DNA from: a virus
Lineage: Duplodnaviria > Caudoviricetes
DNA length: 64,000 bases
Virus record (IMG/VR): IMGVR_UViG_3300031836_000002
Span: 60,210-124,209 of that record
Strand: one strand, 5' to 3'
Both the position numbers and the translations under genes were made by a program. Below are positions 11,402 to 20,057 of the stretch, one piece after another. The notes beneath the pieces are model-generated. The model was not told where the DNA came from. It saw only the letters and a list, made by a program, of their open reading frames with translations, and searched no databases. Each line of letters opens with the position of its first letter. Positions within the stretch are counted from its first letter, which is position 1.

Positions 11402-11593
11402 CTAGCTTTCTCTGTTGTTGTGGAGGAATAGCTGGATCTCATCCGTGCCTGCCACATCGAAATCGTAGGGACCATCTGGGAGTTCCACAGTGTCCGGATA
11501 CGTTTCTCGATCTGAGAATGTCACAAGGATCGACTCGCCCCCGTCTCCATGCCGGGGTAGGTACTTCCGCGTGGCTTCTATCTTGGGCTTCAT
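11402..11593 (-). CDS. hypothetical protein
   Basis: ATGA-coupled ORF. Confidence 0.5.
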   Translation of the reverse strand: MKPKIEATRKYLPRHGDGGESILVTFSDRETYPDTVELPDGPYDFDVAGTDEIQLFLHNNRES

Positions 11594-11883
11594 GGCTCTA
11601 ACTGGTAGCTGCCCACCAGTTGGTCGAAGTCCCCGGCTCGCACGAGGATCAGGTCAGCGGTCTCCACGAGGGCCTTGACGTTAGCAATGGTGTACTCGAA
11701 CCCGATGACACTGGACAAGGCAGAGCTACCGGGCTTGTAGCTCTCCATCAGCCTAAGGGTGATGGGCTTGGCGCGACTCTTGGGATTGTGCTTCACCTCC
11801 CACCAGCGGCTGTGTCCGGCTTTGGGGAGACTTTTCTTCAGCTGCTCACGCAGGTGGGAGGTGATCGGCTCTTTGGTGGTCAT
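11590..11883 (-). CDS. hypothetical protein
   Basis: ATG 11883 just downstream of a GGCGTACAA motif. Confidence 0.6.
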   Translation of the reverse strand: MTTKEPITSHLREQLKKSLPKAGHSRWWEVKHNPKSRAKPITLRLMESYKPGSSALSSVIGFEYTIANVKALVETADLILVRAGDFDQLVGSYQLEP

Positions 11884-11913
11884 GATCTGTTGTACGCCTA
11901 TCTCCGGGCGTAG

Positions 11914-11952
11914 AAAAGGGCTGGCCTTCCGAGAATACGGTTTGACCAGCCC
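11914..11952 (-). terminator. terminator ending the tRNA array
   Basis: GGGCTGGTC...GGCCAGCCC hairpin plus TTTTCT. Confidence 0.7.
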
Positions 11953-12004
11953 AGCGACCCAAAGCGCCCCCACCGGGCCGCGTGGTCAGTCTATACGACT
12001 ACTG

Positions 12005-12078
12005 TCCCTCAGGGTGGACTCGAACCACCGCGTCACCTTGTTATGAGCAAGGGGCCTTACCAGCTTGGCTACCGAGGG
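12005..12078 (-). tRNA. tRNA-Met(CAT) (or Ile2)
   Basis: Cloverleaf; CCTTG-CTCATAA-CAAGG. Confidence 0.9.
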
Positions 12079-12198
12079 AAGTGAGGGAGGCTCGCACCCG
12101 TCGATGCGAGCGTCACCCTCGTGCTCGTTTCACTGCCTCGATGAGCTTCGAGTGAGGGACCTTCTCCCTCAGGCAGTCGTGCCCGCAATTCTTCTTTG

Positions 12199-12272
12199 TG
12201 GATCCACAGGGACTCGAACCCTGAACCATGTGCTTGCAAAGCACGCGCTCTACCAGTTGGAGCTATAGACCC
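12199..12272 (-). tRNA. tRNA-Ala(TGC)
   Basis: Cloverleaf; loop TTTGCAA; G3:U70. Confidence 0.92.
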
Positions 12273-12283
12273 TCGATCATGCG

Positions 12284-12357
12284 TAGCCTCAACAGGATTT
12301 GAACCTGTGACTTCCTCCTTATCAGGGAGACGCTCTACCAGACTGAGCTATGAAGCT
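12284..12357 (-). tRNA. tRNA-Ile(GAT)
   Basis: Cloverleaf; loop CTGATAA. Confidence 0.92.
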
Positions 12358-12385
12358 TTGTCGCGGATCCGCCGCGCCGGTATTG

Positions 12386-12457
12386 TCCCCTCGACTGGAT
12401 TCGAACCAGTGGCCAAGAGATTAGAAGGCTCCTGCTCTTCCTCTGAGCTACGAAGGG
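12386..12457 (-). tRNA. tRNA-Arg(TCT)
   Basis: Cloverleaf; loop CTTCTAA. Confidence 0.9.
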
Positions 12458-12460
12458 AAG

Positions 12461-12534
12461 TGGAGACGGAACCCGGAATCTAACCGGGGTAAGAAGCTTT
12501 GCAGGCCCCTGCCTAGACTCTCGGCCATTCCGCC
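12461..12534 (-). tRNA. tRNA-Cys(GCA)
   Basis: Loop CTGCAAA, U73, CCA encoded; T-loop TTAGATT. Confidence 0.88.
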
Positions 12535-12544
12535 AAATTCTTGT

Positions 12545-12838
12545 TTAGGTCTCATCCTCTGGACGTTCCTCGAATGTGATAGCCACATCCTTTCCCAGCA
12601 TAGAGTCGAACCAAGCGGCTGCTTCAGGGTTCCCTACGGTGAGTTTGACCTCTCCCGATGGGGTGGCGGATGACCACGCCTCGTTCTGAGGCCCTTTAGC
12701 TCCTGATACAGGAGACATGACTACTTCGATGCGGGGGGCTGGATTCGCCCAACCACTAGCGTGAGCCTGAGAGACCGATGCAGCGAAACGCTTGACTTCA
12801 CGGACGTAGAAACGGGCGGTGACTTTGGATATGGACAT
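12545..12838 (-). CDS. conserved hypothetical protein
   Basis: GAGGAGG RBS before ATG 12838; NEAWSSATPSG.V.L.V.NP motif. Confidence 0.75.
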   Translation of the reverse strand: MSISKVTARFYVREVKRFAASVSQAHASGWANPAPRIEVVMSPVSGAKGPQNEAWSSATPSGEVKLTVGNPEAAAWFDSMLGKDVAITFEERPEDET

Positions 12839-12940
12839 AGTTGCCTCCTCGGCAATAGTTGAATTGAACTTGAGGAGGTCTGCGAACCAGATTTGAGCCT
12901 GCGTCCGAACCTGTGCCCAGTGTAGCTCATTTCTTCTTTG

Positions 12941-13012
12941 TAGGCCTTGAGGATTCTGCCACCTCGACCCTCCGCTTAAAAGGCGGATGCTCTGCTTCTG
13001 AGCTAAAGGCCC
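12941..13012 (-). tRNA. tRNA-Lys(TTT)
   Basis: TCCGC-CTTTTAA-GCGGA; atypical T-loop. Confidence 0.85.
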
Positions 13013-13017
13013 TAGCG

Positions 13018-13089
13018 CTCCGGGGGCTGGGGTCGAACCAACGCCACCTGATTCCAAAGATCAGCGTGCTGCCATTACACCACCCCGGA
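13018..13089 (-). tRNA. tRNA-Gln(TTG)
   Basis: Cloverleaf; loop CTTTGGA. Confidence 0.9.
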
Positions 13090-13163
13090 TTGAAGAGTCC
13101 ACTACCTGTTAGGCCGGTCTTGGATAGGGCTAGCCAGCCGTGTGCGCTGCCCGTGGACTCTAG

Positions 13164-13234
13164 CTCCCCACCAAGGATTCGAACCTCGACAAACTGGCTC
13201 AGAACCAGTTGTGCTGCCGTTACACCAGCGGGGA
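13164..13234 (-). tRNA. tRNA-Gln(CTG)
   Basis: Cloverleaf; loop TTCTGAG. Confidence 0.9.
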
Positions 13235-13307
13235 ATATAGCAAGACGTGAGTATTAGTACCGACCGTCTTCGCAGGGATGATTGATGTTTGTCCCCACGT
13301 CTTACCG

Positions 13308-13379
13308 TGCCCTTCGAGGGATTCGAACCCCCAACATACGGTTCCGAAGACCGGCGCTCTTCCGTTGAGCTAGAAAGGC
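13308..13379 (-). tRNA. tRNA-Arg(TCG)
   Basis: Cloverleaf; loop CTTCGGA. Confidence 0.9.
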
Positions 13380-13433
13380 AGACCCGGCGCTGATCCAACA
13401 GCACTCCTGAATCGAACAGTCCGTTCCGGGGTT

Positions 13434-13496
13434 GTTAGCGCTCTGCCATTGAGCTACCGATCAAATCGGCTGGGACTCGAACCCAGATACTCTAAC
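13434..13496 (-). ncRNA. circularly permuted tRNA-like RNA (YrlA/Y-RNA-like topology)
   Basis: Order GTTAG, variable region, T arm, closed acceptor hairpin, TA, D arm, G, CTAAC. Confidence 0.75.
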
Positions 13497-13498
13497 CG

Positions 13499-13570
13499 TG
13501 CCCTTCGAGGGATTCGAACCCCCGGCCCTCTCATCCGTAGTGAGATGCTCTTCCGCTGAGCTAGAAAGGC
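13499..13570 (-). tRNA. tRNA-Arg(ACG)
   Basis: Cloverleaf; loop CTACGGA. Confidence 0.92.
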
Positions 13571-13652
13571 ATGTGATGTGCCCGCCAATTACCTCAGGCA
13601 CATCGTCGTCAATTTTTCCTCCACTCCGAGTAAAATTGAAAAACCCTCGTCG

Positions 13653-13720
13653 TAACGTTGGCTGGATTCGAACCAGCGACCACCTCATGAGGAAGCTCTG
13701 CCTACCTGAGCTACAACGTC
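13653..13720 (-). ncRNA. tRNA-like RNA with truncated anticodon arm (CAT)
   Basis: Intact acceptor, D and T arms; only 17 nt between the D and T arms. Confidence 0.7.
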
Positions 13721-13819
13721 TATCCCGTGGGGCAATTACTCCCACTCGTCCAGCTTCTGAAGCCTTTGGATCCCCACGTCATGGCCATGCCGCGGTTCCT
13801 CTCCAGCTCCGTCTACTCG

Positions 13820-13891
13820 CTCCCCATCTTGGATTCGAACCAAGGACCAATCGGTTAACAGCCGAACGCTCTGCCTCTGAGCTAACAGGGA
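13820..13891 (-). tRNA. tRNA-Asn(GTT)
   Basis: Cloverleaf; loop CTGTTAA. Confidence 0.92.
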
Positions 13892-14128
13892 TTACGTGAG
13901 ATGGAAGCTGTCCTGCGTACTCAGGACCTTAGTGCTTCGTCGTTTCACCTATGGGGAGTACGACATTCCCCACCGGTAGGACACCCACTTGCCCTTTGTC
14001 TTCTCCAGAGCTTCGAGACACTGAAGAGGTGATCCGGAGATTTACGCACTCCGACAGTGACCTCATTACAGAGGATCGCGTGCCAGCTTTTCATTTTTGA
14101 AAGGTCTTGAGGCTGGATCCGTTGACCT
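13892..14128 (-). ncRNA. putative structured ncRNA (~235 nt)
   Basis: No ORF; multiple hairpins and complementary loops. Confidence 0.5.
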
Positions 14129-14130
14129 TG

Positions 14131-14202
14131 TGCTTCTCAGAGGACTCGAACCTCTGACCGGTGCCGTGTAAAGACATTGCTCTGCCGCTGAGCTAGAGAA
14201 GC
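14131..14202 (-). tRNA. tRNA-Val(TAC)
   Basis: Cloverleaf; loop TTTACAC. Confidence 0.9.
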
Positions 14203-14203
14203 A

Positions 14204-15067
14204 TTAGGCAGGAGAGAGTTTCTCCGCCGCCGCACGGTACCGATCTAGAATGTCTGTCTTCTGGATGTGGTCCCGTTGCGGGTAGAACGTGTAATGACTG
14301 ACCAGCGCGTTCCCGGCGATGGCAGTAGGCCGGTTCAGTCGCGTTGGCATCTCGATGGAGTGCCACGCCTCATCGTCAGTGTGTTCGATGTAGCCGGGAG
14401 GAGTGCAGTGGTTGTGATACTCCTCGGAGAGGCTGGCGAAACAGCTCACGCTAAACTGCTGCCCTAGTGGGAGCTGCACGTCGTGATAAAGAAACAGCTT
14501 GCTGACTGTTCCGGCTTCCACATGGTCTAGGAGAAGGTTGTGCATCTTTTCCGCGAATGGTCCGTCTGCCCAGCCAATTGGGTCCATGCAGTACGGCTGC
14601 ACTTCTCCCCACTCGCGGGGCACACAACCTTGCATCTGGAGGTACCACGTGGATATAGCGTTGTTCCAGATGATGGGGAAGGTCACGAAGGCTGAGCTGG
14701 AGAGCTTCGACTTCACCAAAGTAGCAAGGGCGTCCTCGTGGATGTAAACGATGTCGTCATCAAATCGGACGTAAACCGTGTTCGGCTCCACACAGTTCTC
14801 GAAGAAAACTCTTGTGTTGTACTGCTTCTTGTGGTTGAGATTCCGGGTGGCTGGCGCGTACTTCTGTGTGATCCAGTCATGCTCAGCTGCCAGCTTGTCG
14901 GCGTAGGAGACATCCGAGACCTGATCCGGGTCGGTGTTCATCCAAAGCTGCCACTCATCCAAGACTCCTCTTTCGTGGTCCCTTTGGAGGTAAGAGAAAA
15001 GGATGGATGCAGTCGCCACCCTGCCGTATGGTGTGCAAGCAACTACCCGGCTTTCCAGAACTGTCAT
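14204..15067 (-). CDS. GT-A-like glycosyltransferase
   Basis: TPYGR N-terminus, YVRFDDDIVYI DxD motif; start 15067 (leaderless) or 15139. Confidence 0.65.
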   Translation of the reverse strand: MTVLESRVVACTPYGRVATASILFSYLQRDHERGVLDEWQLWMNTDPDQVSDVSYADKLAAEHDWITQKYAPATRNLNHKKQYNTRVFFENCVEPNTVYVRFDDDIVYIHEDALATLVKSKLSSSAFVTFPIIWNNAISTWYLQMQGCVPREWGEVQPYCMDPIGWADGPFAEKMHNLLLDHVEAGTVSKLFLYHDVQLPLGQQFSVSCFASLSEEYHNHCTPPGYIEHTDDEAWHSIEMPTRLNRPTAIAGNALVSHYTFYPQRDHIQKTDILDRYRAAAEKLSPA

Positions 15068-15197
15068 GGGACCAACAGTAGCAAACTCTGGAATCTCATA
15101 CCCGTGGTTTTGGAGGCCCTTTGCGCTGTCGGAGGGCAAGTCCGTCTCATTCCTGAGAGATCTCTCTTTTCCTGTTGGACTGTTCGAGATAACATCG

Positions 15198-15272
15198 GGC
15201 CTCTGGAGGGATTCGAACCCCCGACCGTCGCTTTACAAGAGCGTTGCTCTGGCCAAACTGAGCTACAAAGGC
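15198..15272 (-). tRNA. tRNA-Thr(TGT)
   Basis: Cloverleaf; loop CTTGTAA. Confidence 0.9.
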
Positions 15273-15275
15273 ATG

Positions 15276-15544
15276 TGCTGAGGAGATCGTGAGATATCGT
15301 GCGCTCAGCTCGCTCTGGCCTTTCGGTATCCAGACCCATGCCACAGCGGGCGAAGGAAAGTCCACCCCCTGCAACTCCGACAAGTTGTTCGGTCAGGGGG
15401 CTTCACATCTGCGCTGCCTACGAGAGGCTGCGAGAAAAAGTGCACCGGATGCCCTTGCAAAGGCGCTCCTTCCGAGGGAGCCAGACGGACTCAAGTTGTT
15501 CGTGATGTCTGAGCCGAACGCTGGTGACTAACTGCGTCCTTCCG
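15276..15544 (-). ncRNA. putative structured ncRNA (~270 nt)
   Basis: Many stems with G-U pairs favouring the minus strand, GAAA tetraloop, internal repeats. Confidence 0.5.
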
Positions 15545-15615
15545 AGGAGTACGCGGGGATCGAACCCGCGATGTCTGTTTGGAAGACAGACGTGTTACCG
15601 CTACACCAGTACTCC
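15545..15615 (-). tRNA. tRNA-Gly(TCC)
   Basis: Cloverleaf; loop CTTCCAA; U73. Confidence 0.92.
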
Positions 15616-15701
15616 GTGAGCGCATTTAGCGGGTGCGCCTGACCATCCCGAAGAGAGGATACAGCCTCTCAATCCCAGCTCCCTGTATGAGGCTGGATCT
15701 G

Positions 15702-15773
15702 TGGGCCTGCGTGGAGTCGAACCACGTTCTCTTGATTAAGAGTCGAGAGCATCACCACTAATGCTTCAAGCCC
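15702..15773 (-). tRNA. tRNA-Lys(CTT)
   Basis: Cloverleaf; loop CTCTTAA. Confidence 0.88.
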
Positions 15774-16108
15774 CGATATTTTGCTATGTTCTCCGGTAAC
15801 TGCATCCTCTCGAATGTTCTAATTCGATGACAGGTACCACAAACTACGTCACATTTTGCAATCTCAGCCATGATCCGGTTTATGGACTTACCCATGAGAG
15901 CTGCCACTGTAGTAGCGGGATCGCTATCACGGTTCACCCTGTGGTCAAACTCTAATCCGGCGTGATGGGCTGAGTACCTGCAATCCGCACACCCCTGAGA
16001 CACCTTGTACTCCCGAACCACCATGACGTTCTTTTGATACCGGCCTCGCATGTACGCTGCCATGTAATCTCGGTACTCTTGGGAGCTTTTATCTCTGGGT
16101 CTACTCAT
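15758..16108 (-). CDS. HNH endonuclease
   Basis: CADC, LEFDH, KCDVVCGTCHRIRT motifs; stop codon lies inside tRNA-Lys(CTT). Confidence 0.9.
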   Translation of the reverse strand: MSRPRDKSSQEYRDYMAAYMRGRYQKNVMVVREYKVSQGCADCRYSAHHAGLEFDHRVNRDSDPATTVAALMGKSINRIMAEIAKCDVVCGTCHRIRTFERMQLPENIAKYRGLKH

Positions 16109-16131
16109 GCAGTAAGAATACCTTATCTAAC

Positions 16132-16220
16132 TTGGCGGAGAACTGAGGGCATGATCCCCTCACCTTGCGGTGCCAACCGATTAGCAATCGGTGCCGGTGC
16201 GCCTGCCCGGTAAGCTCTCC
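16132..16220 (-). tRNA. tRNA-Ser(GCT), atypical
   Basis: Loop TTGCTAA, long variable arm, G73-CCA; odd T-loop and bulged acceptor. Confidence 0.8.
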
Positions 16221-16221
16221 A

Positions 16222-16314
16222 TGGCGGATGAAGTAGGTCTCGAACCCACACGGGTATTACCCCCAACTGTTTTCAAGACAGCGCCCGATAGGCCGAAGCT
16301 CGGGTTATTCATCC
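16222..16314 (-). tRNA. tRNA-Ser(TGA)
   Basis: Loop CTTGAAA, long variable arm, G73-CCA. Confidence 0.88.
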
Positions 16315-16338
16315 TTGTGTTTTTCTCTGTGGAATTAG

Positions 16339-16366
16339 AAAAGCCCCAGACTGTTAGGTCTAGGGC
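16339..16366 (-). terminator. attenuator terminator 2
   Basis: GCCCTAGAC-CTAACA-GTCTGGGGC hairpin plus TTTTCT. Confidence 0.85.
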
Positions 16367-16396
16367 CGCATTAGCGAGATTCGAAAATCTGCTGAG

Positions 16397-16471
16397 TTAG
16401 GACAGCCCTGAAGTACTGCGATTGGCCACAATGGCCGATCCCATTACTTGCTTGGACTGGTTTTTTCTCAT
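16397..16471 (-). CDS. leader peptide 2 MRKNQSKQVMGSAIVANRSTSGLS (leaderless uORF)
   Basis: ATG 6 nt after TAGGGT; codons match downstream tRNAs; 3' end is complementary to the terminator stem. Confidence 0.8.
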   Translation of the reverse strand: MRKNQSKQVMGSAIVANRSTSGLS

Positions 16472-16477
16472 GCGTTG

Positions 16478-16507
16478 ACCCTACTACTACTTTCAATCGA
16501 GACGCAA
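16478..16507 (-). promoter_or_regulatory. sigmaA-type promoter of tRNA block 2
   Basis: TTGCGT-N18-TAGGGT. Confidence 0.7.
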
Positions 16508-16532
16508 GTGCATCCCGAAATTCTTCTTTGAT

Positions 16533-16668
16533 TGGACGATGCAGACGATTCGAACGCCACTTCCAACACTCTAGGCTGGCGAGCTGCCGCTGATGCTCTC
16601 CGGGATACGAACGCGCGCTCGACATCCTCCGGTGCTGTCTTTGGTCTACCTGATTACTCCATACATCG
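16533..16668 (-). ncRNA. expanded tRNA-like RNA with encoded CCA
   Basis: 7-bp acceptor CGATGTA/TGCATCG-T-CCA, D, anticodon-like and T arms, ~63-nt insert before the D arm. Confidence 0.7.
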
Positions 16669-16670
16669 AG

Positions 16671-16755
16671 TGCTCATCCCCGGACTTGAACCGGGACGAG
16701 GGTTACCCCTCACAGCCACCTCAAGGCTGCGTGTCTGCCATTTCACCAGACGAGC
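16671..16755 (-). tRNA. tRNA-Leu(GAG)
   Basis: Loop TTGAGGT; long variable arm. Confidence 0.92.
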
Positions 16756-16825
16756 TTATGCTGGGGTAGGTGGTCCATTCCTACCCCTGAGGTGGCATGC
16801 CCTTGGAGGAGCACTGCCACCTTTG

Positions 16826-16899
16826 TGTCTCTCCTCGGATTCGAACCGAGAACCTTTGGATCCTAAATCCAACGCCTCTACCAGTTGGGCTAGAAAGAC
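16826..16899 (-). tRNA. tRNA-Leu(TAG), short variable region
   Basis: Loop TTTAGGA; 5-nt variable region. Confidence 0.88.
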
Positions 16900-16921
16900 A
16901 TGTGGATTGATCGAGCTTCAG

Positions 16922-17029
16922 AAGGCCGGGAGGATTCGAACCTACACACCAGCGCGTTTCCCCTCGGGCTACCAAGGGTACTAAACGCCGCCTCTGCCAC
17001 TTCAGCTTTTTAATAGTGCGAACCAACCT
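16922..17029 (-). ncRNA. expanded tRNA-like RNA
   Basis: Acceptor AGGTTGG/CCGGCCT, GGTTCGAATCC T arm, D-like arm, elongated anticodon-position arm. Confidence 0.6.
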
Positions 17030-17071
17030 ACGTCCGCTCGATCAATCCCGATGAGTAGCTATCTCATCTTG

Positions 17072-17144
17072 TGCCCACCGAGAGGATCGAACTCTCAGCC
17101 TTCCCGGCTTCAACGGGACGCTCTTCCACATGAGCTTGGAGGGC
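17072..17144 (-). tRNA. tRNA-Phe(GAA)
   Basis: Cloverleaf; loop TTGAAGC. Confidence 0.9.
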
Positions 17145-17219
17145 ATATAGCACACCGACATGGAACGCCTCCTCTGACTCAGCGTATATACCGGTGTGCT
17201 AGAACGTCAAAGACGTTCG

Positions 17220-17302
17220 TGACAGGAGAGGGATTTGAACCCCCACAGTCGAAGACCACTGGGTTACAACCAGCTACCCTGCGCCAATAGGTGAGTCCTG
17301 CC
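17220..17302 (-). tRNA. tRNA-Tyr(GTA)
   Basis: Loop TTGTAAC; long variable arm. Confidence 0.88.
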
Positions 17303-17354
17303 TTGGTGCGGACACTTACGCGGCCCGCTTACGACCATATTTGGATGGCTTCCG

Positions 17355-17426
17355 TAGCGCGCACGGGATTCGAACCCGCACCGTAGAACCTGAAAAGCTC
17401 CAGAACTGCCGTTATTCTAACGCGCC
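17355..17426 (-). tRNA. tRNA-Glu(TTC)
   Basis: Cloverleaf; loop TTTTCAG. Confidence 0.88.
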
Positions 17427-17494
17427 ATAGGTAGAGACCGCCAATAACGCGGCTGGAAGGCCTGACACCCTTCTCACTCACCCTCTACCTGCCG

Positions 17495-17568
17495 TGACCT
17501 GCACGGGACTTGAACCCGTAACCTCCAGCTTGAGAAGCTGATGCAACTGCCAATTGTGCTAGCAGGCC
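17495..17568 (-). tRNA. tRNA-Glu(CTC)
   Basis: Cloverleaf; loop TTCTCAA. Confidence 0.9.
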
Positions 17569-17707
17569 ATATTGGAAGTTTCTGTGGTGCATCCTCGATG
17601 GGACCCTTGTGGGGGCTACCCCCTTCGCTGGTTTAGCGGCCAGCTACTCGGCACGTCCACTCCCTCAACTATTTTCTCCCATGCACTGGGACTGGATAGC
17701 TCCATAG

Positions 17708-17780
17708 CGGCCCTAGTCGGATTTGAACCGGCAACCTTCGCGCAGACAACGCACTGCTCTACCAATTGAGCTATAGGGTC
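17708..17780 (-). tRNA. tRNA-Asp(GTC)
   Basis: Loop TTGTCTG; G73. Confidence 0.85.
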
Positions 17781-17857
17781 AAAGCCAGTTTCTTCTTGCC
17801 ATGGAGTCTGGCATCCACGCCGTCCTTTTCTGATTGTGCCTCAGCGGTATCGGAAGT

Positions 17858-17934
17858 TGGGGTGAACAACGGGGATCGAACCCGCGACATCCGGCTCCAC
17901 AAGCCAGCGCTCTGCCTACTGAGCTATGCCCACC
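17858..17934 (-). tRNA. tRNA-His(GTG)
   Basis: G-1:C73, loop TTGTGGA, CCA encoded. Confidence 0.93.
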
Positions 17935-17983
17935 ATGTGACAGGACCACAAGGATCCTGTCTGTTCTCATTTCTGAAAACTTG

Positions 17984-18057
17984 TACGGATAGCAGGATTC
18001 GAACCTGCGATCTCTTGGTCCCAAACCAAGCGCCTTACCAAGCTGGGCTATACCCGT
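17984..18057 (-). tRNA. tRNA-Pro(TGG)
   Basis: Cloverleaf; loop TTTGGGA. Confidence 0.92.
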
Positions 18058-18096
18058 ATGTTGTTGCATTCACTGTGTAATTATCAAGGTGCAATG

Positions 18097-18127
18097 AAAA
18101 AACCTCCTTGCCCGGTGGCTAGGAGGT
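18097..18127 (-). terminator. attenuator terminator 1
   Basis: ACCTCCT-A-GCC-ACCG-GGC-A-AGGAGGT plus TTTTT. Confidence 0.88.
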
Positions 18128-18153
18128 CTGCTGCGTTTGAGCGCGTGCTACCT

Positions 18154-18198
18154 CTAGCCGAAGTAATCTTCCGGCAGGAGGTGTGAGAACGTGTTCAT
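18154..18198 (-). CDS. leader peptide 1 MNTFSHLLPEDYFG (leaderless uORF)
   Basis: ATG 7 nt after TAAGGT; codons match downstream tRNAs; stop region is complementary to the terminator stem. Confidence 0.85.
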   Translation of the reverse strand: MNTFSHLLPEDYFG

Positions 18199-18205
18199 GT
18201 AACAG

Positions 18206-18235
18206 ACCTTAGTTGCGTGAGCTGACGGTTGTCAA
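18206..18235 (-). promoter_or_regulatory. sigmaA-type promoter of tRNA block 1
   Basis: TTGACA-N18-TAAGGT. Confidence 0.8.
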
Positions 18236-18253
18236 CTCCATTTTCAGGTTTCG

Positions 18254-18327
18254 TTGCGGAGGTGGGATTTGAACCCACGACCTCTAGGATATGAGCCTAG
18301 CGAGCTGCCTAACTGCTCTACTCCGCG
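18254..18327 (-). tRNA. tRNA-fMet-like (CAT)
   Basis: C1:A72 mismatch; loop CTCATAT; only two terminal G-C pairs in the anticodon stem. Confidence 0.85.
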
Positions 18328-18362
18328 TCGTACTATAAGGATTGCATGTGCAATCTAATTTG

Positions 18363-18833
18363 TCAAGAGTTGATGAGTTCGAGGTAGTCGAACTTGGTTC
18401 CTAGGCAATCGTGGATCGTGACACCTAGGCCCTGAAGCTCGACTACGTTTCCGTTGTAGACGAATGCGTATTCCGGGATGGCTCCGACACCAAGGACGAA
18501 GCGGTTTCCCTCCTCAGTGAGCTTCCAGAAGCCTGCACGGCCTCCGTCTGGTCTCACGCTGTAGTTCTCTTCTTCGATCAGTCCCCACCAGCTGGCTTGG
18601 GAGATCTCGTGAGTGTCTCCGGGAAGCGAGGGGGTGTGCTGATAGTCCTCAGACCCTCCTGCGTGATGCAGCTGGATCAAGGCCTTGGCAATGGTGGCAT
18701 GTAGCTTGCGCCGGTACACCTTGGCGTTCTGTCCACAGCAAGGGCACTTGGCTCCTTCTGACACGTTAGTGAGGAGCCACTCCTTCGCCATCAAGAGGGT
18801 GGTATGTGCCCCCGTAACCATTCTTTTCAGCAT
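18363..18833 (-). CDS. hypothetical protein (CxxC, winged-helix-like)
   Basis: CPCCGQ and WGLIE...W.LTEEG motifs. Confidence 0.65.
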   Translation of the reverse strand: MLKRMVTGAHTTLLMAKEWLLTNVSEGAKCPCCGQNAKVYRRKLHATIAKALIQLHHAGGSEDYQHTPSLPGDTHEISQASWWGLIEEENYSVRPDGGRAGFWKLTEEGNRFVLGVGAIPEYAFVYNGNVVELQGLGVTIHDCLGTKFDYLELINS

Positions 18834-18864
18834 GCTGTTCCTTTTCGTTGACCTAACAAAATCG

Positions 18865-18984
18865 TACTGAAGACGGGATTCGAACCCGCATGCTACGTGT
18901 CGCGTTCACGTGCTTGCCTCTACACCTTGACCTCCGCCTCTAAAAGGCGTAGCCACACACTGCCAGCTTTTAAGTCACTCCAGT
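18865..18984 (-). ncRNA. expanded tRNA-like RNA
   Basis: Acceptor ACTGGAG/CTTCAGT, canonical T arm, ~88-nt structured core. Confidence 0.6.
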
Positions 18985-19073
18985 GGGGTGTTCTTCAGTT
19001 CCGGCCCATGTTTCAGCTTGCGCCCTTCCAGATCAACGGGGGACAGCTTCGGCAATGAGCTAATGCCTATGCG

Positions 19074-19147
19074 CGGGATGTGGTGGATTCGAACCACCGG
19101 CTTCGGTTTTGGAGACCAACGTGTTAGGCCACTAACACTAACTTCCC
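19074..19147 (-). tRNA. tRNA-Trp(CCA)
   Basis: Cloverleaf; loop CTCCAAA. Confidence 0.9.
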
Positions 19148-19148
19148 T

Positions 19149-19326
19149 TGGCGGCAGGACTCTCATTGAAGAGCTTCTCCTCTAGACTTCTTGCTCCATT
19201 TCCTAGGTTGGGAGCTGCCCATTTTCGAGGTTGGGGCTTCCGGGTGGATCCACATCTGGTCTAAGTTCTCGGTTCCGCGGAGGTCCGAAATTCTTCTACT
19301 GATCGTGGCCCGGTCAACACCTGCCG
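19149..19326 (-). ncRNA. CCA-ended structured RNA with twin hairpins
   Basis: Closing stem CGGCAGG/CCTGCCG-CCA; T-like hairpin; two hairpins with near-identical loops. Confidence 0.55.
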
Positions 19327-19401
19327 TAGCCCTCCTCGGATTCGAACCGAGACGTTACTGGTTTTTGAGACCAGCTCCTCTACCGATTGGGATAGAGAGC
19401 C
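19327..19401 (-). tRNA. tRNA-Leu(CAA), short variable region
   Basis: Loop CTCAAAA; 6-nt variable region. Confidence 0.88.
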
Positions 19402-19492
19402 AAGCGGAACCTGCCACTTCTGGGGGGAGAGCTTTAGGTTCCTAGCTGCTTCTCCGAGACTGAGGAGACTGTACGAGAAGCAGTTATCTATA

Positions 19493-19771
19493 TTACGATG
19501 ATGAACCATCGTTTGAAAAGGGTGTGGCAGAAACTTCTTCAAGTCCCGCCTCTTTGATGAACAGATCCAAAGTGCCCATGACTCCAGAGGTGGCCTGAGC
19601 ATCCTTACCTGCCTGCCTTAGGCGCTTCGCAATGATGGGTAGGGCAAACGTCACGGCCTCTTCAGCCTGAGCTGCCCACACCTCCCTGAGGAGTTCAAGG
19701 TCGATATGAAATTCTATCTTTGAGGCATTATCCTCTGAGAACCTCACAGCAATTTCTTGCGCTAATGTCAT
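19493..19771 (-). CDS. hypothetical protein
   Basis: AAGGA RBS; ATGA coupling. Confidence 0.6.
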   Translation of the reverse strand: MTLAQEIAVRFSEDNASKIEFHIDLELLREVWAAQAEEAVTFALPIIAKRLRQAGKDAQATSGVMGTLDLFIKEAGLEEVSATPFSNDGSSS

Positions 19772-19926
19772 TGGTTCCTTCTCTCGATCACGGCAGACCA
19801 GATCCAGAAACCAGAACCAGCTGCCATGAGGATAAACACGATGGGATACGCTGCGGACTCGATGAAGCAGGAAGCTAGCAAGTACAGAGCGCCTGCCCAA
19901 ATCAGCAACCGGTGCTCCCGCCTCAC
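19768..19926 (-). CDS. small membrane protein (52 aa)
   Basis: GTGA-coupled ORF with two hydrophobic helices. Confidence 0.55.
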   Translation of the reverse strand: MRREHRLLIWAGALYLLASCFIESAAYPIVFILMAAGSGFWIWSAVIERRNQ

Positions 19927-20057
19927 TGTACTTCCTCCACATCCGCGAACAACGAGTGGACCTGAACAGTCAGTGCGGTTCCGTTTGCCGTGTGTCCTAC
20001 TACTCGGGTTACGGTAGGCAAGCTGTTTACAAACCGATTGAAATCTCTGTTGTCCAT
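19923..20057 (-). CDS. small hypothetical protein (44 aa)
   Basis: GAGGAGG RBS behind a promoter repeat. Confidence 0.55.
   Translation of the reverse strand: MDNRDFNRFVNSLPTVTRVVGHTANGTALTVQVHSLFADVEEVQ

Follow-up and report, generated by a model that had tools for sequence, protein, structure and literature searches.

A leader unit upstream of the first tRNA block

The window analyzed here, i.e. the whole stretch of 64,000 nucleotides, forms the right-hand part of a virus record of 124,209 bp (IMGVR_UViG_3300031836_000002; Caudoviricetes). Nearly all its genes are carried by the minus strand, and ARAGORN detects 28 tRNA genes between 19401 and 12004, to which Rfam adds two others, one at 13012-12941 and a Ser(tga)-like one at 16314-16226. 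We report here that the first block of these tRNA genes is preceded by a unit (18235-18097) organized like a ribosome-mediated, or leader-peptide, transcription attenuator, and that a second unit of this kind precedes the second block. Since the DNA polymerase I of this virus places Microbacterium phage Magritte as its nearest phage (46.5% identity), the host of the window phage is probably an actinobacterium. Nucleotide searches of INPHARED with the window returned tRNA matches only and no close relative.

Block 1 (18057-16670, minus strand; ARAGORN and the Rfam tRNA model), counted up to the next promoter, comprises nine tRNA genes in the order Pro-tgg, His-gtg, Asp-gtc, Glu-ctc, Glu-ttc, Tyr-gta, Phe-gaa, Leu-tag and Leu-gag, which serve seven amino acids (Pro, His, Asp, Glu, Tyr, Phe and Leu). 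This order recurs in phages Magritte, Pumpernickel, Zooman, Cece and A3Wally and in the IMG/VR contig L140.

The unit upstream of this block lies on the minus strand and begins with a -35 hexamer TTGACA (18235-18230), followed after an 18-nt spacer by a -10 hexamer TAAGGT of the TANNNT type (18211-18206) and, 7 nt later, by an ATG (18198-18196). This promoter, proposed in an initial annotation of the DNA, was confirmed base for base by direct reading. The ATG opens a probably leaderless open reading frame (ORF) of 14 codons, MNTFSHLLPEDYFG (18198-18154, stop codon TAG at 18156-18154), which sits 96 nt upstream of tRNA-Pro and whose residues 4 to 13 include Phe, His, Leu, Leu, Pro, Glu, Asp, Tyr and Phe. 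Segment 1 (18182-18173), on the His-Leu-Leu-Pro codons, is the 5' arm of a 1:2 hairpin. Segment 2 (18159-18150), over the Gly codon and the TAG stop, can pair with segment 1 or with segment 3. A spacer with a small apical hairpin (18149-18131, ACGCGC..AAACGC motif), which would cap the 2:3 antiterminator, leads to segment 3 (18127-18117), which is both the 3' arm of the antiterminator and the 5' arm of the terminator. Segment 4 (18112-18102) and a U6 tract (18102-18097) complete the unit, and tRNA-Pro starts at 18057, 40 nt past the U tract. A TTGAC-N16-19-TANNNT promoter followed by an ATG and a short ORF occurs only at this site in the 124-kb genome. A cmscan search of 11500-20000 with E-values up to 1 found no Rfam family match inside 18235-18097, whether to leader families (His, Leu, Thr, Trp and others) or to T-box.

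The leader peptide is written in the amino acids of block 1

All seven amino acids of block 1 are present in the leader peptide, a property that is unique among the 388 ATG-started ORFs of 12-17 codons in the whole genome and that a random peptide of this length would have in about 1-2 cases per 1000. Block 1 amino acids account for nine of the 13 residues after the initiator Met, the remaining four being block 2 residues. The initial annotation had considered that, from the first to the second Phe codon, every codon except TCA was read by the downstream tRNAs. This holds for the codons of the block amino acids, and AAC and ACG are read by tRNAs of block 2, but the GGC codon would not be read by the Gly-tcc tRNA of the array under standard wobble. 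As for the TCA codon, it is probably read by the tRNA-Ser(tga)-like gene at 16314-16226.

A second unit of complementary composition precedes block 2

A second unit (16507-16337, minus strand) lies after the last Leu gene of block 1 and before block 2. It consists of a -35 hexamer TTGCGT (16507-16502), an 18-nt spacer, a -10 hexamer TAGGGT (16483-16478) and, 6 nt later, an ATG at 16471 that opens an ORF of 24 codons ending with TAA (16399-16397). Its segment 2 (16410-16403), located at the last codons, is complementary to the 5' arm of a terminator (16367-16342) that is followed by a U tract. Block 2 (16314-12004, minus strand; ARAGORN and Rfam) starts with Ser(tga)-like, Ser-gct, Lys, Gly, Thr, Val, Asn and a tRNA with anticodon tca, and continues with Arg, Arg, Gln, Gln, one extra tRNA, Cys, Arg, Ile, Ala and Met, with a few ORFs interspersed. 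A short ORF near 16310 was also tried as the leader of block 2; it was rejected, as it is part of the tRNA-Ser(tga)-like gene, and the actual second unit lies upstream of it.

Block 2 amino acids make up 22 of the 23 residues that follow Met in leader 2. Hence, the ratio of block 1 to block 2 residues is 9:4 in leader 1 versus 1:22 in leader 2 (Fisher p = 6.6e-5). Homologous second units were found before the second blocks of Magritte (locus L002, from 11141) and Pumpernickel (locus L132, from 9759), where the same composition test gave p = 0.03 and p = 1.8e-4, respectively. The window, Magritte and Pumpernickel thus each harbor two cassettes of complementary composition, one for each tRNA block. 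This second unit is the strongest support for the idea that leader codons are matched to the tRNAs that follow.

Alternative folds and ribosome masking

Fold computation recovers the four-segment switch of the initial annotation, with the same coordinates and the same alternative 1:2, 2:3 and 3:4 pairings. The minimum-energy fold of the full leader combines 1:2 and 3:4 (-40.1 kcal/mol, z = -4.6; none of 200 shuffled sequences was as stable), and removal of segment 4 turns the minimum-energy structure into the 2:3 hairpin. Taken singly, the helices reach -16.4 kcal/mol for 1:2 (18183-18149), -20.6 for 2:3 and -18.2 for 3:4. Therefore, 2:3 is the best single helix and 1:2 with 3:4 the best overall fold, which is the hierarchy expected for an attenuator. 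The 3:4 helix has, as proposed, the form of an intrinsic terminator: its hairpin (18128-18101) has eight pairs, an A/A mismatch, three pairs and a loop ACCG, and is followed by U6. Furthermore, the duplex between segment 2 and the 5' arm of the terminator has an energy of -15.2 kcal/mol, and only 0.7% of random windows of the genome pair as well (empirical tail 0.007).

To model a translating ribosome, the nucleotides from 15 nt upstream to 12 nt downstream of the first base in the A-site codon were kept unpaired, and the transcript was folded up to the terminator loop. When the ribosome is placed at the stop codon or close to it, segment 3 is sequestered in the window with a probability of only 0.06-0.16, so that complete translation of the leader would lead to termination. 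With the A site at any codon from Asn to Pro, segment 3 remains sequestered (0.75-0.77; 0.69 at Glu), so that stalling in segment 1 would lead to antitermination. Both outcomes agree with those initially predicted, and the same masking model gives them in all lineages: segment 3 is freed by a ribosome at the stop codon or within the five preceding codons, and it stays sequestered when the ribosome is held at earlier codons.

Homologous units in other phages

Ten homologous units were found before the syntenic tRNA block, in seven Microbacterium phages (Magritte, Pumpernickel, Cece, Zooman, Big4, A3Wally and one more) and three IMG/VR contigs (L139, L140 and L141). The cultured carriers include phages of Microbacterium foliorum, M. 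paraoxydans and M. radiodurans. All ten units keep the promoter spacing, with a -35 hexamer that is TTGACA or a one-mismatch variant, an ATG of the leaderless type, a short ORF that includes the seven block amino acids, the complementarity between the stop-codon region and the 5' arm of the terminator, and the terminator itself. The primary sequences of all the helices differ. Leaders of unit 1 span 13-17 codons, and the distance from the -10 hexamer to the ATG is 6-7 nt in all 11 copies of unit 1 and in the three copies of unit 2.

In Magritte, the array runs Leu-caa, Trp, a homologue (31% identity) of the 156-aa gene located upstream in the window, Pro, Asp, Glu, Glu, Tyr, Phe, Leu and Leu. 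The gap before tRNA-Pro contains TTGACA-N18-TAACGT-N7-ATG and a 15-codon ORF with Tyr, Phe, Glu, Glu, His, Leu, Asp, Leu and Pro, in an order unlike that of the window, followed by helices made of G6/C6 runs and by a terminator. The other nine units belong to six phages of 186-195 kb (Pumpernickel, Cece, Zooman, Big4, A3Wally and one other) and to contigs L139-L141; here, the unit heads an array with the order Pro, Pro, Pro, His, Met, Asp, Glu, Glu, (Tyr), Phe, Leu, followed by further genes. In these 190-kb-type units, a -35/-10 pair is followed 6 nt later by an ATG, which opens an ORF of 13-17 codons whose core reads Y-E-L-D-F-H-L-E-P. The region around the stop codon is complementary to the terminator's 5' arm, and the terminator has a U-rich tail. 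In the 190-kb phages, the genes upstream of the unit are oriented divergently, and the terminator there would therefore act only on transcripts coming from the leader promoter.

Comparison of nine sequences shows that this nine-codon core varies synonymously at five third positions. First positions changed only twice, both times in A3Wally, where a Leu codon and a Phe codon trade places and the composition stays the same. The synonymous third-position variation supports reading in the leader frame and points to selection on it. Between lineages, the order of the residues is scrambled and their composition is kept. Segments 2, 3 and 4 also differ in sequence between lineages, and the 2:3 and 3:4 complementarities persist. 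For instance, L140 and Zooman differ by compensatory changes in all three segments together with a different peptide tail, which indicates that RNA pairing is what is kept there. In each of the ten units, the pairing between the stop-codon window and the terminator's 5' arm exceeds that of 90-99.5% of random windows taken from the same phage (empirical tail 0.005-0.1). Moreover, the 1:2 hairpin begins at the His-Leu codons CAC-CU in every relative, and the ACGCGC..AAACGC motif of the spacer is kept in the window and in the 190-kb-type units, Magritte having the GCGCGCG part only. Covariation was judged from per-sequence tables of duplexes and hairpins; an alignment-based approach (MAFFT and RNAalifold on 6-8 sequences) was discarded, as it placed the helices of subgroups out of register and produced a spurious outer helix.

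When six related array loci were scanned for this architecture, exactly these units and one other match were retrieved. Applied to two unrelated actinophage arrays of about 35 tRNAs each, those of Gordonia phage Sixama and Streptomyces phage Genie2, the scanner retrieved no candidate, although it requires a U-tract terminator and a TANNNT or Shine-Dalgarno motif, so that variants may escape it. The terminator pattern had no match in IMG/VR and the back-translated pattern of the window leader none in metagenomes. A loose pattern combining the promoter with ATGAACAC gave at least 120 unrelated IMG/VR matches, none with a comparable short ORF. Searches with the neighboring genes led to five related phages, whose retrieved 21-kb loci have 0-1 tRNA each and no array. 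In these IMG/VR relatives, the arrangement TTGACA-N17-TAAGAT-N6-ATG precedes leaderless protein genes, 70 and 133 codons long.

Other features of the loci

In all nine 190-kb-type units, the sequence ACTTGACA is invariant in the terminator loop while the stems covary (L132 3803-3835, L133, L134, L135 and L139-L141). It may be the -35 hexamer of an internal promoter or a protein-binding site. In the same phages, a conserved hairpin GTCCGATCAGG ... CGATCACGGAC, which may be a processing or stabilizing element, lies between the attenuator terminator and the first tRNA-Pro gene (L133, around 2540-2585; same place in L132 and L134-L137). A peptidyl-tRNA hydrolase gene is found directly after their first tRNA block (L132 6451-6921, L133 5714-6124, L134 5822-6202); it would then share the attenuator of block 1, and its function is linked to stalled translation. 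In Pumpernickel, an unannotated tRNA-Tyr(gta)-like sequence was read by eye in the 245-nt gap between Glu-ttc and Phe (L132 5420-5500). The tRNA annotation of A3Wally (MZ150783.1, L134) is unreliable, since the names of its products treat the anticodon as the codon, e.g. 'tRNA-Trp(tgg)' for Pro-tgg. A soil metagenome contig (L142 1600-1775) carries a relative of the 156-aa upstream gene (57% identity) and, downstream of it, TTGACA-N18-AAAGAT with a single tRNA-Pro(tgg) gene; this locus has neither a matched leader ORF nor a U-tract terminator.

In the window, a palindrome TTGCACATGCAA (18352-18331, minus strand) is followed 4 nt later by TATAGT, immediately before a tRNA-Met gene, and the same geometry occurs at 1031 on the plus strand. 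The motif AAAGAAGAAT is present in three copies on the minus strand (around 16530, 12935 and 12195), two of which are followed by TTCGGG-like bases, and a related copy around 19292 (minus strand) reads GTAGAAGAAT. This type of motif recurs directly after tRNA or tRNA-like sequences, and the region 19317-19290 forms TTGACC-N16-AAGAAT; it may correspond to a second class of promoter or to a processing signal.

Three genes of the array deserve mention. The Ser-like gene at 16314-16226 (minus strand) is a long-arm tRNA with a TGA anticodon loop that scores 34.5 bits against the tRNA-Sec model. The tRNA at 13012-12941 (minus strand), absent from the ARAGORN calls, is a standard one (48.6 bits). The 69-nt tRNA at 13720-13652 (minus strand), inside block 2, has the anticodon tca and is called SeC by ARAGORN; it scores 44 bits on the general tRNA model and may read UGA in a suppressor-like manner. 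In addition, weak partial matches to YrlA, a Y RNA-like family, were obtained in the array on the minus strand at 13487-13440 (34 bits) and 12415-12331 (23 bits), both below the gathering score. A Ro-like RNA-binding protein is encoded beside the tRNA arrays of Magritte, Sixama and Genie2.

Proposed mechanism

The anatomy of the unit, its alternative folds, their conservation with covariation and the composition match of both leaders with their own blocks lead us to propose that a ribosome-mediated attenuator gates block 1 by sensing the decoding of the codons that this block serves; we give this reading a probability of roughly three in four. The host RNA polymerase would start at the ATG, or within 1-2 bases of it, and produce a leaderless message. 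We infer this start because the 6-7-nt distance from the -10 hexamer is kept in all units and the same geometry is found at real genes of related phages. A ribosome would then translate the 14-codon leader while the polymerase transcribes segments 3 and 4. If decoding is fast, the ribosome would reach the last codons or the stop and cover segment 2, the 3:4 hairpin would form and transcription would end at the U tract, before tRNA-Pro. If an aminoacylated tRNA is scarce, the ribosome would wait at Phe, Ser, His, Leu, Leu, Pro or perhaps Glu, i.e. in or before segment 1. With segment 1 masked and segment 2 free, the 2:3 antiterminator would form and transcription would proceed into the Pro-His-Asp-Glu-Glu-Tyr-Phe-Leu-Leu genes. 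Since the codons of the leader call for the amino acids that the tRNAs of this block carry, expression would be on demand and self-limiting: the tRNAs produced would restore decoding and thereby shut off their own synthesis. The second unit would act likewise on block 2.

Several observations weigh against this proposal. The transcription start at the ATG, the translation of the leader and the response of termination to stalling are deduced from sequence. In the masking model, stalls at Asp, Tyr or the second Phe in the window, or at Pro in the relatives, would cover segment 2 and favor termination instead of readthrough, which bears out a caveat of the initial annotation about late codons. 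That annotation also held that an untranslated leader terminates. The equilibrium fold of the untranslated truncated transcript is, however, 2:3 in most units, the window included, so that termination without translation would rest on a kinetic priority of 1:2. Furthermore, each regulatory amino acid occurs only once or twice in leader 1, without runs, and therefore sensitivity to any single tRNA may be low. Codon choice adds nothing: given the amino acids, nine of nine codons are readable by the anticodons of the block where 8.1 are expected from the codon usage of the genome, which means that the match is one of amino-acid identity and not of special codons. The leader of Magritte keeps a His codon though no tRNA-His was detected there. 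Lastly, other promoters may be involved: the palindrome with TATAGT before the upstream tRNA-Met could also feed transcripts into leader 1, a TTGACG-N18-TACGCT site lies between the Tyr and Phe genes of block 1, and the TTGACA in the terminator loops of the 190-kb phages could be part of an internal promoter that bypasses the switch. The latter may provide a constitutive floor of expression in these phages.

Alternative explanations

One alternative is a general sensor of translation capacity, which would report whether ribosomes engage on the leaderless ORF and complete it (ribosome availability, leaderless initiation or global slowdown) and not the supply of particular aminoacyl-tRNAs, the composition match being secondary. 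In most units, the truncated transcript favors the antiterminator even when no ribosome is present, so that inefficient initiation could by itself suffice for readthrough, and the sparse sampling of each amino acid, as well as codons that are not tuned beyond genome usage, fits such a sensor. However, it requires neither the two units per genome whose amino-acid sets are complementary, barely overlap and each match the tRNA block downstream, nor a composition kept despite the scrambled order between lineages, nor a Leu/Phe swap that leaves the composition of A3Wally intact. We thus regard this explanation as unlikely. The unit could also be a stand-alone micro-gene or small RNA, whose peptide or RNA of about 100 nt is functional, the tRNAs being transcribed from other promoters. 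The strong terminator would suit an independent unit, and so would an internal promoter formed by the loop TTGACA of the 190-kb phages, which in Pumpernickel unit 2 is followed 18 nt later by TAGACT. Besides, action in trans is reported for released attenuator RNAs and leader peptides elsewhere, e.g. for rnTrpL/peTrpL (PMC7968998). Yet a functional peptide would be expected to keep the order of its residues, whereas composition alone is kept across lineages and the peptide tail varies where RNA pairing persists. The unit always lies directly before the tRNA block that it mirrors, twice per genome, the terminator loops of the window and Magritte are devoid of TTGACA, and the soil relative with a single tRNA-Pro has a promoter with neither the ORF nor the terminator. 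This second explanation therefore appears quite improbable. Finally, an ordinary promoter and terminator could enclose an accidental ORF in the spacer, short ORFs being common in this genome (388 of 12-17 codons). Only one of these 388 covers the block amino acids, and eleven units in three lineages, as well as a second paralogous unit, share the same properties, which makes chance very unlikely, indeed nearly negligible.

Beyond the attenuation of block 1, the two attenuators could together constitute a stall-sensing, self-limiting supply circuit, in which two sampler peptides survey two disjoint sets of amino acids and only the block whose host counterparts run short is switched on, for example when host tRNAs decay during infection or are cut by the anticodon nucleases of defense systems. 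We put forward this extension tentatively, as possible rather than probable. If it is true, these tRNA arrays are an inducible counter-defense and not a constitutive aid to codon usage.

Significance and comparison with known systems

Phage tRNA genes are usually viewed as constitutive helpers for codon usage or as decoys against tRNA-cleaving defenses, and to our knowledge the control of their expression has remained essentially undescribed. If the proposed mechanism is true, this would be the first reported case in which tRNA genes are under feedback from their own decoding activity, and leader peptides could serve as multi-input sensors; we found no account of leader-peptide control of tRNA genes in the literature accessible to our search, most subscription journals lying outside its scope. 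The units belong to an actinophage lineage with a probably leaderless leader design. Cultured SEA-PHAGES isolates that grow on laboratory Microbacterium hosts carry the device (Magritte, Zooman, Big4, A3Wally, Pumpernickel and Cece), which can thus be tested at the bench. Moreover, the units are short portable parts (about 140 nt) that might be used to report decoding stress for chosen sets of amino acids.

Classical leader-peptide attenuators control amino-acid operons (trpL, hisL, pheL [PMC3082878], leuL, thrL and the multivalent ilvGMEDA leader) and pheST (pheM leader). As far as its sequence can tell, the phage device is one of them by every criterion: it has a short leader, whose translation is predicted, mutually exclusive 1:2/3:4 and 2:3 pairings, and an intrinsic terminator before the first regulated gene. 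Its regulatory codons name the supply that is controlled, and several amino acids are likewise combined in the ilv and thr leaders. However, the phage unit targets tRNAs and not enzymes or synthetases, and it includes seven amino acids once or twice each, without runs. It also differs in being phage-borne, probably leaderless, without any Rfam leader match, and in that two paralogous units share the array.

Attenuators with leaderless short ORFs (sORFs) are already documented in actinobacteria. In mycobacteria, poly-Cys leaderless sORFs attenuate downstream genes (bioRxiv 10.1101/834739), and Corynebacterium glutamicum has leader peptides before trpE, leuA, ilvB and aroF (PMC3890552). The phage units resemble the leaderless ones by their likely actinobacterial host and by an ORF located at the predicted 5' end of the transcript, a first cistron that would control the downstream genes through stalling at specific codons. 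In contrast, the actinobacterial sORFs sense one amino acid by repeated codons and control biosynthetic or uptake genes, whereas the phage leader samples several amino acids, precedes a canonical hairpin and U-tract terminator, and targets tRNAs.

T-box elements bind uncharged tRNA directly, without translation, and each has one specificity. Like them, the phage unit would couple genes for translation supply to the charging of specific tRNAs through a choice between terminator and antiterminator; unlike them, it has a conserved ORF and no T-box match. Hence, what is new in the phage device is its target (tRNA genes), the design of its sensor (seven or more amino acids, each sampled once, and two complementary samplers in every array) and its carrier, a phage.

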